Part shown: in pieces, positions 20,835 through 25,947 of the stretch
Layout of the letters: each line of letters starts with the position of its first letter
Numbering within the stretch: position 1 is the first letter of the stretch
NCBI GenBank assembly: GCA_003222455.1
Contig: QHWF01000011.1
Coordinates: 1-32,641, forward strand
Origin: Acidobacteriota bacterium
GTDB lineage: Bacteria > Acidobacteriota > Vicinamibacteria > Vicinamibacterales > CAVVIG01
Direction: 5' to 3'
Length of the DNA stretch: 32,641 nucleotides
Notes under the pieces: model-generated
Told to the model about the DNA's origin: nothing
Databases searched by the model: none
Seen by the model: only the letters and a program-made list of their open reading frames with translations
Made by a program: the position numbers and the translations under genes

Positions 20835-22832
20835 TCAGAAGCAGTCGGGGTTGCCGGCAATCCAGGACTCGTGCCACAACACCGCGTTCAGCACGGTCCA
20901 GAGGTGAAAGCTGTAGCCGCCGTTGCCGTCCATCTGGCGCTGCAGCAACTCGCTGAAGTAGGTGTTGTCGAAGAAGCCTTCCTTCTTGAGCACCGATCGA
21001 TCGAAGGCGGCCTGGCAGCGGCGTCCGAAATCGCCCTCGCGAAACCACTCTTCCATCGGCGCCCCGAAACCCTGTTTCTTGCGGTACACGAGATCGTCGT
21101 CCAGATAAGGCGCTGCGGCCTTCTTCAGGAGGGCTTTGCCCACGCCGTTCTGCAGCTTGTAGGACGGGGGCAGCTTCGTCGCGAACTCGACGACGTCGTG
21201 ATCGAGAAACGGCACTCTGGCTTCGATGGAATGTGCCATGGTGAGCTTGTCGACCCGCATCAACAGGTGTTCCGGTAGCCGCAGTTTCATTTCCATGTAC
21301 GGAATCTTCTGCAGCACTTCCGGCTCCACCAGCTTTCCATCGAGGCTGCCGAGATACTCGCGCACCACGGCGTGACTGTCGCGCACCGTGTGACCATGCG
21401 GCATCAGGCCTTCGACGGGGCACTCGACAGCCTGCTCGAACGGAGCCGTGCATGGCGTGAGCGACCCACGCATCTGACCCCACCAGCACACCGCGCCGCC
21501 CCAGAACAATTCCTGGCCGGCTCTGACGCGATTGATGATCTCGAGATCTTCCCCGCTGACGCCTGGAACGGCCGCCCTGGCTCTCGTCCGAAACATCTGC
21601 CACCAGCCCGGCGTCTGCCGCGCCGGTCGGTACACGTCCTCATACTTCTGGCGATAGTGCTCGCACCACCAGTACCCGAGAAAGCTCTCGTCGGCGCCCT
21701 CTCCCACCTGGACGACCGTCGTGCCGCACTGCTTCACGAGCCGCGCGAGAAAGTAGAGCGGGATGCAGACGTTGTCGGCGATGGGCTCGTCCTGCAACCG
21801 CACCAGCAGCGGCAGAAAGTCCTGCGCCTCCTGCCGGCTGATGAGCGTCTCGTGATGGTCCGTCCTGTAGCGCTCGCTCACGCGCCGGGCAAACTGGAAC
21901 TCGTTGTAGTCTTCCTTCCCTTCGTACCCGATCGTGAACGTCGTGACTGGGCGCGTCATCAACTCGCTCATCAGCGCCACGTTCAGCGAAGAGTCCACGC
22001 CGCCTGACAGCAGCACACCGAACGGCACGTCCGACACCATCCGGCGGGCGATGGACTGCTTCATCAGCCGCGTGAGCTCCTGCACCGCTTCGTCTTCGCT
22101 CAGGTCCTGCTCACCGAGCGTCCTGGCCGCCGCCGGTTTGCAATCCCAGAACTGCCGGGCGGTGGCGCGTCCGTGATGATCGATGGTGACGGTGTGGCCC
22201 GCCGGAAGCTTGAAGACATTGCGAAAGAGTGTCATCGGGGCCGGCGTCACGATGAACGTGAGGTAGTGCCAGAAAGCGGTGAGGTCCATTTCGGCCGATA
22301 CCTGGGGATGCGCGAGCAGCGCGCGGATCTCCGACGCAAACAACCATTCCCCGGCGGCCGTCTTCGTGAAGTAGAGCGGCTTGATGCCCACGCGGTCACG
22401 CACGAGGTGAAGCAATGGCCGGCGATCGCGGGCATCGTAGATCCCGGCGGCAAACATGCCGCAGAACTGCTGGAAGCAGTCCAGGCCCCATTCTTCGTAG
22501 GCATGCAGCAGCACTTCGGTGTCCGAGTGATCGGTCTTCCACTCGTATTTTCCGATCGCCGCCAGTTTCAGCCTGAGCTCGGCGTGGTTGTAGATCTCGC
22601 CGTTGAACGTGACAGCCACGGTTCCCGCGGCGTTCAGCATCGGCTGCGCGGCGGCGTCAGACAAATCGATGATCGACAGGCGTCGGTGGCCGAGCGCGCA
22701 GCGACGGTCCGGAGAGAGCCACAGGCCGACACCGTCGGGACCGCGATGGGGCATCCTGTCCCGCATCGCCTCCACGATGTCGGCTCGACACTCGCCGCCG
22801 AGGGGTTTGAAGCTACCGGCGATTCCACACAT
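20835..22832 (-). CDS. Asparagine synthase (glutamine-hydrolysing) family amidotransferase
   Basis: ORF 20835..22832, 665 aa. It has the N-terminal nucleophile MCGIAG, HRGPDG, FNGEIYN, and the PP-loop SGGVDSS in the synthetase domain. Confidence 0.9.
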   Translation of the reverse strand: MCGIAGSFKPLGGECRADIVEAMRDRMPHRGPDGVGLWLSPDRRCALGHRRLSIIDLSDAAAQPMLNAAGTVAVTFNGEIYNHAELRLKLAAIGKYEWKTDHSDTEVLLHAYEEWGLDCFQQFCGMFAAGIYDARDRRPLLHLVRDRVGIKPLYFTKTAAGEWLFASEIRALLAHPQVSAEMDLTAFWHYLTFIVTPAPMTLFRNVFKLPAGHTVTIDHHGRATARQFWDCKPAAARTLGEQDLSEDEAVQELTRLMKQSIARRMVSDVPFGVLLSGGVDSSLNVALMSELMTRPVTTFTIGYEGKEDYNEFQFARRVSERYRTDHHETLISRQEAQDFLPLLVRLQDEPIADNVCIPLYFLARLVKQCGTTVVQVGEGADESFLGYWWCEHYRQKYEDVYRPARQTPGWWQMFRTRARAAVPGVSGEDLEIINRVRAGQELFWGGAVCWWGQMRGSLTPCTAPFEQAVECPVEGLMPHGHTVRDSHAVVREYLGSLDGKLVEPEVLQKIPYMEMKLRLPEHLLMRVDKLTMAHSIEARVPFLDHDVVEFATKLPPSYKLQNGVGKALLKKAAAPYLDDDLVYRKKQGFGAPMEEWFREGDFGRRCQAAFDRSVLKKEGFFDNTYFSELLQRQMDGNGGYSFHLWTVLNAVLWHESWIAGNPDCF

Positions 22833-22852: not shown

Positions 22853-24178
22853 TCAGCTGTGGGTTTTTCCTGAATTCCGGCGCAAGAGTCGCTTAACGAC
22901 CTCGCTGGGCGTGGCATCGAAGGCCGCCTGGAGATCGCCGAGCCGATCGTTGAGCCTGCCAAGCTGATCGTTCTGCCGCGCGATCGTCTGATCGCGTGTT
23001 GCGATCTCCTCATACAGCCGGGCGATGGTGCGATCGCGTTCCTCGACCGCACGATTCCGCTCTTCCTGGAACTCCGCCAGCAGGCGATCGCGCGTCGCGA
23101 CGTCGGCCTGCAGCTGGACCAGCAGCGGCTCCCGTTCAAGGTCGGCCAGCATCTGATCACGAACTACCACCTCGTGCTGCAGCTGCGCCAGCAACGGCTC
23201 CCGGTCGACGAGATCGTCAGCCTGAAACTCCGGACTGTCGTGCCGCATGGCTTCCCAGTGGCGTTCCGTCTCGACGAACAGCGTGCGCCACTCGGGGGCG
23301 GGGCCGGTGGCGGTCGTCGTCTCCCCGCGGCGGGACAGCGTCGTGATGTACTCGCGCTGCGTCGGGTCGGCCAGCATTTTCCAGAAGTTGGTCACGTCAC
23401 GGCCACTGAGCTCCGGCTGCTCATAACAGCTATAGCTGTACAACTCGATCGCCTTCACCTCGTGACCGACTTCGTTCAGCATCCACGCGACTTCAGGCGC
23501 GGTGTATTCACGGTGATGCCCTTCGTACGGAATCGGCGAGTAGAACTGCGCGGCCAGAGGCGGCCACACACTCTCGCCCCGCGCAAGTGCCTGACGCTTG
23601 TAGAGGTGCGCGAGGTTCGGGGTGTCGATCACCAGATGACCGCCCGGCTTCAGCACACGATTGATCGTGGTCAGCAATCCAAGAGGCGTATGAGGCACGT
23701 GCTCGATCACGCCGGCGCACAGCACCACGTCGTAGCCGCCATCAGGCAACCCCGCCAGAGCCCGGCCTGCGTCGTCGAAGTCGAGCAGCCGAATGCCGCG
23801 ACTCCGCATGAGCGACAACGGCGGTTCAAGCGTGCGTGCATACGTGCGATAGGCATCGACCGCATCGACGTCGAAACCCAGATCCGCGAACATGCCTGAA
23901 AAATTGCCGAAGTACGCGCCGTAGTCCAGCAGGCGTCCCTGACGGACGCCTGCGCGCCTCAGCGCGCCGGCCGCATGAATCATTCGCGCAATGCTGCAAC
24001 GGAGATAGTTGGACCAATCGTTCTCCCTGAGCGCCGGCGAATGACGCTCCAGGGCATCGTAAGACAGCCCGTGGATCACGCCCAGCACGCGATCCACCGC
24101 TGCGATGGCGACGGGCAGCTCCTCCGGGAAGTCGTCCGCGAGACACGCGGGGAAATGAAGGTCGAGCGTCTCGTTCAT
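22853..24178 (-). CDS. Class I SAM-dependent methyltransferase with a ~110-aa C-terminal coiled-coil tail containing tandem repeats
   Basis: The track ORF is 22853..24199. ATG 24178 overlaps the ABC ATPase stop (ATGA). MT motifs are RLLDYGAYFGNFSGMFADLGFDVDAVD, YDVVLCAGVIEHV and LKPGGHLVIDTPN. The tail reads DREPLLAQLQHEVVVRDQMLADLE / REPLLVQLQADVATRDRLLAEFQ / EERNRAVEERDRTIARLYEEIATRDQTIARQNDQLGRLNDRLGDLQ. Confidence 0.8.
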   Translation of the reverse strand: MNETLDLHFPACLADDFPEELPVAIAAVDRVLGVIHGLSYDALERHSPALRENDWSNYLRCSIARMIHAAGALRRAGVRQGRLLDYGAYFGNFSGMFADLGFDVDAVDAYRTYARTLEPPLSLMRSRGIRLLDFDDAGRALAGLPDGGYDVVLCAGVIEHVPHTPLGLLTTINRVLKPGGHLVIDTPNLAHLYKRQALARGESVWPPLAAQFYSPIPYEGHHREYTAPEVAWMLNEVGHEVKAIELYSYSCYEQPELSGRDVTNFWKMLADPTQREYITTLSRRGETTTATGPAPEWRTLFVETERHWEAMRHDSPEFQADDLVDREPLLAQLQHEVVVRDQMLADLEREPLLVQLQADVATRDRLLAEFQEERNRAVEERDRTIARLYEEIATRDQTIARQNDQLGRLNDRLGDLQAAFDATPSEVVKRLLRRNSGKTHS

Positions 24179-25947
24179 GACGAACCAACCAGGCCCCAAT
24201 CGGCCTCAGAGACCTGAAGCGTACCGCGGCCGATCAGGCCCGAGCCCTCCACCGCGAACTCAAACATGCGGGAGATACAGCAATAGACCTGCTCGTTGAT
24301 GGAATAAAACACGGTTTGCTCGCGATCGTAGTAACCCTCGCTGGAAATCATGATCGTGACGGAGTAGTGGCCATCGGTCAGCATCAGCCGGGGCACTCTG
24401 AGCCGAATCGTGCCGCTGCCCCGTTCCCTCGCACGGAAGCACAGATTTCTGCTGATGAAGCGGCAGACGTCCAGCACGCCTTCGCGATGGATGGCCACGA
24501 CGACCTGCGCCCGTTCGTCCAGCTTCGGGTCGGCGATTCGGTAGCCGATTTCCAGAGTGGCGAGCTCGCCATGACGTAAAAAGAACGCGGCCTGCCCTTC
24601 CGCATCGACAAAGCCCGCTTGGGTCACGCTGATGGCGCCGCTTCCCTGGACGCCGGCCGTGTTCAGGACAACGGCCTCGCTCCGCGACTGAAACGCGGCG
24701 AATGGGACGGACAGCGTCGCGGTAGCCCAGCGCCCGACTTCTGCCGGCAGTGCGCCAAGCCTTGCCGCACGGTCATCGACATGGGCACTCACGACGACGT
24801 CAGCGGCTTCGTCCATCCAGAACTCGATTTCAACCTCGAGAAGGGCGTCACGATCCAGCACCGCCGCCGGCACCGGATAGACGGCGGCCACTTTGTGAAA
24901 AGAACTGCCGTAGTTGAGGAAGGGCCGCGCCGATCGTCCCTGCCAGTCGGTGTTCTCGCCCCACCCCCCGCCCGCGCGTTGCAAATGCGGTTTGTCGGGC
25001 TCGTCAAACGGCGTCACGGCCGGCTCAATCGAGCTTCTGTATTTTTCAATGACAACAGACAACGACCGCAGGTAGAGGGGCGACGGCAGGGGACGATTGT
25101 CTCGACTCTGCAACTCGATGATCATGTGCCGCACGGGAGCAACTTCGATGGGCTCCAGCTGCTTCAACCGTTCCTGCTGCTTCATCCGCAGGCGATTCTC
25201 CTCTTGCAGGCGGATCGAATCTTCGTAGGCTTTCACGACCGATGGTGCAGCCCCATCCATCAGCACGCGACCGCGGTCGATCCAGACGACGCGGTTGCAC
25301 ATCTTGACGGCCGAGTAGATGTCGTGGGTGACCAGCAGCAGCGTCGTACCCTGCCGGTCACACAGATCCCGCATGCGTTGGTAGCTTTTTGATGCGAAGT
25401 ACGCGTCTCCAACGCCCAGAATTTCGTCGAGCACGAGCAGCTCCGGCACAATCGCCGTCGCCGTGGAAAACATCAGTCGTACGCCCATCCCGGAGGAGTA
25501 GGTCTTCACCGGCTGGTCGATGTACTCCTCGAGCTCGGCAAAGTCGACGATCTCCAGGTATTTCGCCTCGGCCTGCCGCCCGACGACACCGAGTTGCGCG
25601 AGATACGCAAAGACATTCTGCCGGCCGGTGAAATCGGGATGAAACCCGGTGCCGATCTGCAACAGGGCGTGCGCGTGGCCCTTCACATCGATCGCGCCCG
25701 ATGACGGCTCAATCACTCGCGTGATCAGCTTGAGCAGCGTGCTCTTCCCGGCGCCGTTGCGGCCGATGATCGCCACCTTCTCGCCGCGGCGAATCTCCAG
25801 GTTGACGCCATCGAGCGCTGCGTGCTCAGTGTAGGCGCCGCGCCGTTTGCCCAGCATCCCGAACATGTCGAGGAAGCGGTAGCCCGGTCCCGCGTACAGC
25901 CGGTACACCTTGCTCAAATCGCGGGCTCGAATCACCGTGTCGTTCAT
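24175..25947 (-). CDS. Wzt/TagH-type polysaccharide-export ABC transporter ATP-binding protein with a ~340-aa C-terminal extension
   Basis: ORF 24175..25947, 590 aa. It has Walker A GRNGAGKST, the signature YSSGMGVRL, Walker B LLVLDE and an H-loop VTHD. The early motif KVYRLY...F.DMFG is typical of Wzt/TagH. A short coiled segment (QEENRLRMKQQERLKQLE) follows, then two beta-rich regions. The last ~150 aa (FLRHGELATLEIGYRI...VVVAIHREGVLDVC...LTDGHYSVTIMISSEG) resemble the Wzt C-terminal glycan-binding sandwich. Confidence 0.88.
   Translation of the reverse strand: MNDTVIRARDLSKVYRLYAGPGYRFLDMFGMLGKRRGAYTEHAALDGVNLEIRRGEKVAIIGRNGAGKSTLLKLITRVIEPSSGAIDVKGHAHALLQIGTGFHPDFTGRQNVFAYLAQLGVVGRQAEAKYLEIVDFAELEEYIDQPVKTYSSGMGVRLMFSTATAIVPELLVLDEILGVGDAYFASKSYQRMRDLCDRQGTTLLLVTHDIYSAVKMCNRVVWIDRGRVLMDGAAPSVVKAYEDSIRLQEENRLRMKQQERLKQLEPIEVAPVRHMIIELQSRDNRPLPSPLYLRSLSVVIEKYRSSIEPAVTPFDEPDKPHLQRAGGGWGENTDWQGRSARPFLNYGSSFHKVAAVYPVPAAVLDRDALLEVEIEFWMDEAADVVVSAHVDDRAARLGALPAEVGRWATATLSVPFAAFQSRSEAVVLNTAGVQGSGAISVTQAGFVDAEGQAAFFLRHGELATLEIGYRIADPKLDERAQVVVAIHREGVLDVCRFISRNLCFRARERGSGTIRLRVPRLMLTDGHYSVTIMISSEGYYDREQTVFYSINEQVYCCISRMFEFAVEGSGLIGRGTLQVSEADWGLVGSS

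Follow-up and report, generated by a model that had tools for sequence, protein, structure and literature searches.

A candidate terminator-type methyltransferase with a predicted helical stalk, encoded beside a carbohydrate-binding Wzt in a Vicinamibacterales soil bacterium

The locus described here raises the question of whether a methyltransferase (MT) encoded beside wzt in a Vicinamibacterales soil bacterium terminates a surface glycan and whether its long tail measures that glycan. In ABC-transporter-dependent pathways, O antigens and related surface glycans acquire their length through terminator-plus-ruler proteins; to our knowledge, the detailed understanding of such proteins comes from only a few enterobacterial serotypes. 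The window, that is, the whole stretch of DNA that was analyzed (32,641 nucleotides), is an entire contig (C260) of a MAG that is 87% complete. An earlier annotation made from the letters alone, hereafter the sequence-only reading, had regarded the gene as a Wzt-coupled, WbdD-like terminator and ruler candidate with a repeat-built tail. This study used structure prediction, homologue comparison, gene neighborhoods, and metagenome contigs for reexamining that proposal.

Methyltransferase head and predicted helical tail

The ATG of the MT gene at position 24178 overlaps the TGA stop of the upstream wzt gene as ATGA. A longer open reading frame, initiated by TTG at 24199, was rejected as the MT gene because the homologues in the alignment start at the Met encoded by ATG-24178. 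The protein matched the Pfam model Methyltransf_23 (PF13489) over residues 63–241 with an E value of 1.7e-19 (70.6 bits against a cut-off of 27); it also matched Methyltransf_11 (PF08241; 38.4 bits) and further class I methyltransferase models. The open reading frame call, the Methyltransf_23 match, and the agreement of homologue starts bear out the description of a class I SAM methyltransferase gene that overlaps the Wzt stop.

We modeled the protein by using AlphaFold2 with a 119-sequence alignment, and the model had a mean pLDDT of 90.1. In the globular core, a Rossmann fold is preceded by a helical extension at the N-terminus and followed by a lid at the C-terminus. The core motifs DYGxYFGN, GVIEH, DTPN, and EGHHREY were invariant in the homologue alignment, and so were D85, G87, and D108, in agreement with the SAM-binding Rossmann-like fold, glycine-rich motif I, and acidic residue after strand 2 that characterize class I enzymes. 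Foldseek matched the model to many class I methyltransferases at E values of 1e-10 to 1e-8, and its top 50 PDB entries were generic members of this class, including the sugar O-methyltransferases RebM and AtmM. The sequence matches in the PDB, obtained with the single sequence and with the family profile, were UbiG, glycine N-methyltransferase, TehB, and similar enzymes. No kinase family matched the protein, and its layout leaves no room for a kinase domain, with the core ending at approximately residue 311 and the long helix starting at residue 320.

The results further revealed that the tail was predicted as one unbroken helix, with block pLDDT values of approximately 86–93 and a length of approximately 15 nm if straight. 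Its hydrophobic periodicity was 3.45 residues, a value reached by 27 of 2000 shuffles (p of approximately 0.014), and weak matches were obtained to SlyX (Pfam, residues 382–425) and to Sec2. On the basis of the AlphaFold2 helix, the periodicity, and these weak matches, the tail is regarded as a long amphipathic helix that probably forms a coiled coil. A home-made heptad scorer assigned 10–12 to the tail and at most 5 to the core; this crude score was not counted as evidence because composition-matched shuffles reached the score of the tail in 121 of 500 cases. Strict heptad repeat units were likewise abandoned because the dominant spacing of the family motif RDxx plus a hydrophobic residue is 18 residues (108/155), which is no multiple of 7. 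The sequence-only reading had described approximately 95 residues of heptad-like sequence; the helical character of this stretch was retained, but strict heptads were not.

The protein ends in a short cationic helix with a hydrophobic moment of 0.75 and a net charge of +3, which is a candidate anchor to the membrane or to a partner (Table 1). The SExxKRxxRRL motif in this helix is conserved among the homologues.

Table 1. Features of the methyltransferase gene and its neighbors, in positions of the window
Feature	Position	Strand	Basis
MT gene, 441 aa, class I SAM methyltransferase with helical tail	22853..24178	-	Open reading frame; stop codon 22853-22855
Globular MT core, aa 1-311	23246..24178	-	AlphaFold2 pLDDT mostly >90; invariant columns; Foldseek class I methyltransferases
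Unbroken predicted helix, aa 320-421, 102 residues, putative coiled-coil stalk	22916..23221	-	AlphaFold2; hydrophobic periodicity; length varying among homologues
Repeat unit 1, aa 326-348, REPLLAQLQHEVVVRDQMLADLE	23135..23203	-	Direct repeat D1, 69-bp spacing
Repeat unit 2, aa 349-371, REPLLVQLQADVATRDRLLAEFQ, lineage-specific duplicate of the helix-start unit	23066..23134	-	Repeat search, shuffle test
14-residue half-repeat pair, aa 380-406, ERDRTIARLYEEIA / TRDQTIARQNDQL	22961..23041	-	Direct repeat D3, 42-bp spacing; RD spacing 14
Terminal amphipathic cationic helix, aa 424-436, PSEVVKRLLRRNS	22871..22909	-	AlphaFold2; candidate for anchoring to the membrane or to a partner
Wzt, an ABC ATPase of 590 aa, upstream of MT and translationally coupled to it	24175..25947	-	Pfam ABC_tran and Wzt_C
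Wzt_C carbohydrate-binding domain, Wzt aa 434-566	24250-24648	-	Pfam score of 35.8 bits (cut-off, 30.4)
AsnB-type glutamine amidotransferase, 20 bp downstream of MT	20835..22832	-	Pfam, NCBIfam

Gene neighborhood in the window and across phyla

The nucleotide-binding part (NBD) of the window Wzt found its best PDB matches in the Aquifex Wzt NBD structures 6amx and 7k2t. Downstream of MT, the AsnB gene is accompanied by genes encoding an MBOAT with a partner protein and large membrane proteins, and farther along the contig are diacetamido-uronic-acid-type sugar pathway genes, two GT2 enzymes, and a sugar C-methyltransferase (903–2177). The glycan of this locus is probably built from diacetamido-uronic-acid-type sugars and not from mannan.

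No Wzm or other ABC-2 permease (ABC2_membrane) was found on the 32.6-kb contig, and several ABC2_membrane genes were present on other contigs of the same genome. A Wzm from another contig of this genome, used as a probe against the related loci, gave no matches. A Pfam-model search of same-genus genomes located, in G003 and G002, an ABC-2 permease on the same contig and strand as MT. Because this permease lies approximately 19–24 kb upstream of MT in the relatives and the window stops 6.7 kb upstream of wzt, the wzm of the window is probably off the contig.

L001, L003, and L004 derive from the same-genus relatives of the MAG, which are MAGs of Vicinamibacterales and Acidobacteriota. An MT homologue with 51–53% identity was present in three of the four same-genus species and absent from all 36 genomes that were sampled elsewhere in the family and order, a patchy distribution that is typical of surface-glycan loci. 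The MAG itself contains a second Wzt_C–MT–AsnB stretch on a 3.7-kb contig, the MT of which is 49% identical; this copy marks a second locus or else a strain that was binned together with the MAG.

We then determined how far the pairing of MT with Wzt extends. A word-indexed search yielded 364 MT relatives. When the core alone was used in an exhaustive HMMER search, 116 clusters passed E ≤ 1e-30, and 662 passed E ≤ 1e-10. We know of no characterized member of this family, which is of modest size. In approximately 24 of 36 genome loci that contain an MT relative, a Wzt with a homologous C-terminal domain directly adjoined MT. At the level of higher groups, these loci came from Acidobacteriota (Vicinamibacterales and others), Chloroflexia, cyanobacteria, Planctomycetota, Nitrospinota, Nitrospirota, Myxococcota, Desulfobacterota, and Pseudomonas; the taxa included Symploca, Gemmataceae, Nitrospinaceae, Nitrospiraceae, Myxococcaceae, Humidesulfovibrio, several Alphaproteobacteria, Burkholderiales, Pseudomonas fuscovaginae, and P. 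putida. The Wzt_C part was up to 44–56% identical between phyla. An AsnB orthologue (61–79% identical) followed in most MT loci across phyla and constitutes the third conserved member of a Wzt–MT–AsnB module.

In several lineages, the two partners have been joined into a single protein. In-frame fusions of ABC_tran, Wzt_C, and MT were identified at L009 (Nitrospinaceae, 919 aa) and L019 (Rhodospirillales, 970 aa), the only true in-frame fusions among the genome loci, and the same fusion occurred in the metagenome proteins P0134, P0136, and P0153 and in the partial protein P0095. The very long open reading frames at L002, L003, and L005 were rejected as fusions; they are out of frame with Wzt and represent GC-rich open-frame artefacts. 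The conserved adjacency across phyla and the repeated gene fusion provide strong evidence that MT works together with a cap-reading Wzt, and they support the proposal of a Wzt-coupled terminator candidate, since cooperation with such a Wzt is the task of a terminator (PMC11231755, PMC7820976). A literature search for a described Wzt/asparagine-synthase/methyltransferase module gave nothing relevant.

The distribution of the tail was narrower than that of the core. The tail was confined to the subclade of the window (L001–L006 and metagenome relatives), in which the proteins comprise 376–477 aa; MT proteins outside this subclade comprise 281–330 aa and end right after the core. Most family members are tail-less and still adjoin Wzt. 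Among the 119 homologues, both the start (EPLLxxLQ) and the end (LNxRLGxLQxxFDxxxSExxKRxxRRL) of the tail are conserved, and its length after W308 ranges from 40 to 169 aa (median 94; 90–99 aa in 57 of the 119; 133 aa in the window).

Tail-bearing loci usually have MT followed directly by AsnB. The next gene in many tail-less loci encodes a second methyltransferase-domain protein of one of two types, combining either a Zn-ribbon with Methyltransf_23 or a large N-terminal domain with Methyltransf_11. The second methyltransferases at L007, L009, L013, L015, L018, L020, and L023 end in an 'EVxxRDxxI/L' helix and a basic terminus, like the MT tail in kind. At L018 (P. putida strain 31800), the gene order is wzm-wzt-MT-MT(coiled coil)-AsnB-AsnB. 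Because the second methyltransferases of tail-less loci often carry the stalk module, the termination machinery seems to call for a stalk on one of its proteins, and the module seems to be portable between the proteins of Wzt–MT–AsnB loci. The stalk is not indispensable, since most members adjoin Wzt without a tail and no coiled-coil protein was seen near L014 and L019.

Repeats and variation in tail length

The helix of the window protein contains two tandem units of 23 residues and a half-repeat pair, the copies of which occupy residues 380–393 and 394–406. All of the tail segments quoted in the sequence-only reading were found in the protein, and the half-repeat pair that it had noted was recovered. 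Tandem Repeats Finder reported no repeat in the MT gene because the copies are too diverged; a gap-free repeat search and a codon-shuffle test were used instead. In the search, a direct repeat of 65 nt recurred at a spacing of 69 bp with 72% identity, and another of 30 nt recurred at a spacing of 42 bp with 77% identity. The 69-bp duplication was beyond chance: 47 of 65 positions matched, whereas 500 codon shuffles averaged 33.2 matches, with 40 as the highest value and none reaching the observed one. The tandem units had been described as approximately 21 residues long and visible as DNA repeats of approximately 63 bp; the duplication is real, but its period is 23 residues, or 69 bp.

The two 69-bp copies are 68–72% identical, and their longest shared exact run is 9 nt, which indicates that the duplication is old. 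The window protein alone, among the 119 homologues, has two EPLLxQLQ units; therefore, the helix start was duplicated in this lineage only.

We further investigated whether repeat number varies, given the suggestion that recombination between the repeats could change the tail length and thereby the glycan length. The exact window protein occurred on 15 contigs, its 90% cluster contained full-length 441-aa copies or fragments only, and all sampled words of the tail were found in at least 8 soil runs. Contigs from three soil runs of different studies (X1, X3, and X4) were identical over the tail, with no indel, no joint, no base change, and no repeat-number variant of the window gene, with the caveat that rare variants may be missing from contigs. 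Recombination or slippage between the repeats of the window is unlikely, both because the copies share such short exact runs and because the three soil metagenomes lack repeat-number variation; this part of the proposal was not sustained.

The Symploca locus (L007) carries a perfect 42-bp × 3.8 array encoding QEEVNKRDKIIVDV. The second methyltransferases of P. fuscovaginae and P. putida are 77% identical, and nearly all of their 44 gap positions are inside the coil, with conserved flanks. A soil contig (L054) encodes two tail-bearing paralogues in tandem, the tails of which measure 130 and 169 aa. These sequences indicate that length change through repeats happens in relatives.

Proposed role and competing explanations

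We favor, with moderate confidence, the reading that the gene encodes a terminator-type cap methyltransferase that has a CBM-bearing Wzt as its partner and carries a WbdD-like stalk with an end anchor. Using SAM, the core would methylate an undecaprenol-linked glycan, either at the non-reducing end itself or at a group that its last residue carries. This cap would end polymerization, and the Wzt_C domain of the co-translated Wzt would read the cap, after which Wzt would export the chain. The long helix may oligomerize as a coiled coil, and the cationic terminal helix may hold the stalk at the membrane or at the polymerase complex. With the stalk held at its C-terminal end, the catalytic head would therefore be kept approximately 15 nm from the site of polymerization, as in WbdD. 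For the window protein, we infer the substrate, the methylated atom, the oligomerization, the membrane anchoring, and any effect of tail length on chain length. The two parts of this reading differ in support: chain-end capping, which the gene pairing favors, is probable, and the idea that the stalk measures chain length, which is drawn by analogy, is somewhat doubtful.

The combination of a coiled coil in the terminator with a neighboring CBM-bearing Wzt is a hallmark of this glycan assembly strategy (PMC11231755). In the terms of that work, the window encodes a terminator-type module with a 102-aa helix together with a Wzt that bears a C-terminal CBM. We compared the protein with both forms of WbdD, namely the MT-only form (E. 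coli O8 and Klebsiella pneumoniae O5) and the methyltransferase–kinase form (O9a/O3). The predicted architecture of the window protein resembles that of WbdD in its class I SAM methyltransferase head, its long C-terminal helix or coiled coil, and its short amphipathic end, which is membrane-associating in WbdD (PMC11231755); the partner Wzt, similarly, would read the cap through its C-terminal CBM (PMC11231755, PMC3482155). In contrast to WbdD of O9a/O3, in which a kinase lies between the methyltransferase and the coiled coil, the window MT has no kinase; the MT-only WbdD suffices in E. coli O8, and the O8/O5 type needs no kinase (PMC3482155). The stalk of the window protein is also shorter (approximately 100 aa, compared with residues 460–708 of WbdD), and its host is an acidobacterium with a glycan that is probably of the diacetamido-uronic-acid type, whereas that of WbdD is mannan. 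WbdD was not matched in the PDB at E ≤ 1 with the single sequence or the 119-sequence profile, and it was absent from the Foldseek PDB top 50. Judged by these searches, the window MT is an analogue and not an orthologue of WbdD, in agreement with the initial view that its MT domain is not WbdD-like.

Other systems are similar in different respects. ORF6 of K. pneumoniae O7 is a terminator in which a methyltransferase unrelated in sequence to WbdD is followed by a coiled coil, and some of its orthologues stop after the coiled coil; however, ORF6 has kinase-like and CBM-like domains and usually C-terminal GT2 polymerase modules, which the window protein lacks (PMC11231755). In the P. syringae wzm-wzt-MT-GT 'TET' operon for CPA (wzm-wzt-MT-wbdA, with the MT named 'WbdD'), which was compared by description, a SAM methyltransferase that is read as a terminator adjoins a Wzt_C-bearing wzt (PMC7820976); the direct neighbors of wzt and MT in the window include neither wzm nor a WbdA-like polymerase. 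In WbbB of K. pneumoniae O12 and Raoultella terrigena, a coiled-coil ruler parts the terminating from the polymerizing modules (PMC11231755), but termination there falls to a Kdo transferase, and a single polypeptide carries all of the modules. The window gene most likely represents a further example of a known strategy, the coiled-coil terminator design, because this design is a recognized hallmark of the pathway (PMC11231755) and WbdD already occurs in an MT-only form (PMC3482155). The gene extends the design of a head, a long helix, an amphipathic end, and a CBM-bearing Wzt to Acidobacteria, with an uncharacterized MT family.

The explanation that survives best beside the favored reading agrees that MT is a terminator or cap enzyme but regards the tail as a localization and assembly device, which would oligomerize the enzyme and tether it to the Wzm–Wzt/glycosyltransferase complex without its length setting the chain length. 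The Wzt–MT fusions of other lineages join the same core directly to Wzt without a tail; they tether the head to the transporter and not away from it, and therefore fit localization better than the logic of a ruler. Together with the many tail-less members, they fit a localization or assembly role at least as well as a ruler. The tight mode in tail length and the terminal cationic helix, which is the most conserved part of the tail, point in the same direction. Nevertheless, tail length does vary by whole repeat units between conserved ends, stalk length variation was shown to matter in WbdD and WbbB (PMC11231755), and approximately 100 residues of rigid helix are unneeded for a pure tether. 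We consider a purely localizing tail unlikely.

It is quite improbable that MT is an ordinary decorating enzyme, acting on internal repeat-unit residues or on a sugar-nucleotide precursor, with its adjacency to wzt reflecting operon packing and its tail serving as an oligomerization helix. The locus does contain other tailoring enzymes (the C-methyltransferase, the MBOAT with its partner protein, and AsnB), and the Foldseek neighbors RebM and AtmM act on non-terminal chemistry. However, in at least 8 phyla MT has remained adjacent to a Wzt with an orthologous Wzt_C, although the sugar-pathway genes around the pair differ, and the repeated fusions with Wzt and Wzt_C are hard to explain for an enzyme of precursors or internal residues. 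That the repeat-rich tail is non-functional low-complexity sequence, arising from a drifted duplication or a gene-end extension, is highly improbable: the 23-aa duplication unique to the window and the unremarkable heptad score fit such an origin, but more than 100 homologues possess the tail and share its start and end motifs, and the tail is confidently predicted as one helix, is identical in independent soil metagenomes, and has an equivalent that recurs on a different protein in other phyla.

A broader proposal, which we put forward tentatively and regard as rather doubtful, concerns the module as a whole. The window locus would belong to a conserved, undescribed termination module, found in at least 8 phyla and made up of a Wzt with an orthologous Wzt_C, the EGHHREY methyltransferase, AsnB, and often a second methyltransferase; these systems would build and read one shared cap, with a portable stalk. 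If so, the cap might be, for example, a methylated and amidated terminal residue, and the stalk would have moved between the two methyltransferases or been replaced by fusion to Wzt.

The portable stalk, the Wzt–MT fusions, and the conserved AsnB partner are side findings of use in their own right. The comparison makes it testable that the core enzyme is served by its own stalk, by a stalk-bearing second methyltransferase as a partner, or by fusion to Wzt, and that a near-invariant amidotransferase travels with MT. The relatives in Pseudomonas putida are tractable for testing both the cap chemistry and the ruler idea.

Conserved amidotransferase and the wzt context

Comparison of the window with loci L001-L024, which hold relatives of its methyltransferase, revealed that, within the module, conservation was highest for the AsnB-type amidotransferase, which showed 61-79% identity across Acidobacteriota, Pseudomonas, and cyanobacteria. 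The gene was frequently duplicated, and across the loci it was retained alongside Wzt and the methyltransferase while the sugar-pathway genes varied. This pattern hints that amidation is part of a common cap or terminal residue.

In the 590-aa Wzt of the window, the NBD and Wzt_C domains are separated by an extra region of approximately 165 aa. This region is conserved among related Wzt proteins (33-47% identity) and matched no Pfam family. No wzm gene was found on the window contig, including the stretch from wzt to the contig end (24175-32641). In two genomes of the same genus (G003, contig C73; G002, contig C6), an ABC-2 permease gene shares contig and strand with the methyltransferase gene and lies 19-24 kb upstream of it. 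These positions suggest that the permease of the window probably lies past the contig end and that the wzt-wzm distance in this genus is unusually large.

Features of the window and related loci
Feature	Location	Strand	Remark
Extra region of Wzt	window 24658-25152		aa 266-430
AsnB-type amidotransferase	window 20835-22832	-	downstream of methyltransferase; compared across L001-L024
Wzt_C-methyltransferase(tail)-AsnB copy	G000 (MAG containing the window), contig C2:1-3753		3.7-kb contig
Tandem tail-bearing methyltransferases	L054:649-3405		soil contig
ABC_tran + Wzt_C + methyltransferase fusion	L009:6111-8867		Nitrospinaceae; single polypeptide
ABC_tran + Wzt_C + methyltransferase fusion	L019:2132-5041		Rhodospirillales; single polypeptide
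42-bp tandem array	L007:10910-11069		Symploca MAG
Stalk-bearing second methyltransferase	L015:8877-10571		P. fuscovaginae
Stalk-bearing second methyltransferase	L018:8877-10697		P. putida
Genes ahead of module	L015:273-6108		P. fuscovaginae

Additional copies and fusions

The MAG containing the window harbors a further copy of the Wzt_C-methyltransferase(tail)-AsnB stretch, 49-60% identical to that of the window; this copy belongs either to a second locus or to a related strain that was co-binned (bin contamination, 4%). On the soil contig, two paralogues of the window methyltransferase, one of 438 aa with a 130-aa tail and the other of 477 aa with a 169-aa tail, are situated in tandem between wzt and AsnB. 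They could be read as two rulers or as components of a hetero-oligomeric stalk. The proteins P0008/P0013 and P0068/P0099 may be additional pairs of this type, the longest contigs being equal in size within each pair.

Natural fusions of ABC_tran, Wzt_C, and the methyltransferase family in one polypeptide (approximately 895-970 aa) were identified in Nitrospinaceae, Rhodospirillales, and metagenomes; besides L009 and L019, the examples are P0134, P0136, P0153, and P0095. According to PMC11231755, ORF6 of K. pneumoniae O7 was the sole terminator enzyme known to contain a CBM.

Stalk length change in second methyltransferases

The Symploca array is perfect (3.8 copies, 100% matches), encodes QEEVNKRDKIIVDV, and is located in the stalk of the second methyltransferase of that locus. 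It is a recent repeat expansion of precisely the kind that the sequence-only reading had envisaged for the window. Between P. fuscovaginae and P. putida, the orthologous stalk-bearing second methyltransferases shared 77% identity, and nearly all of the 44 gap positions in their alignment fell within the coiled-coil region, with the flanks conserved.

In P. fuscovaginae, the module is preceded by genes for a heparinase II/III-like protein and a large radical-SAM/SPASM protein and by wzm, a gene set that is atypical of O-antigen-type export loci.
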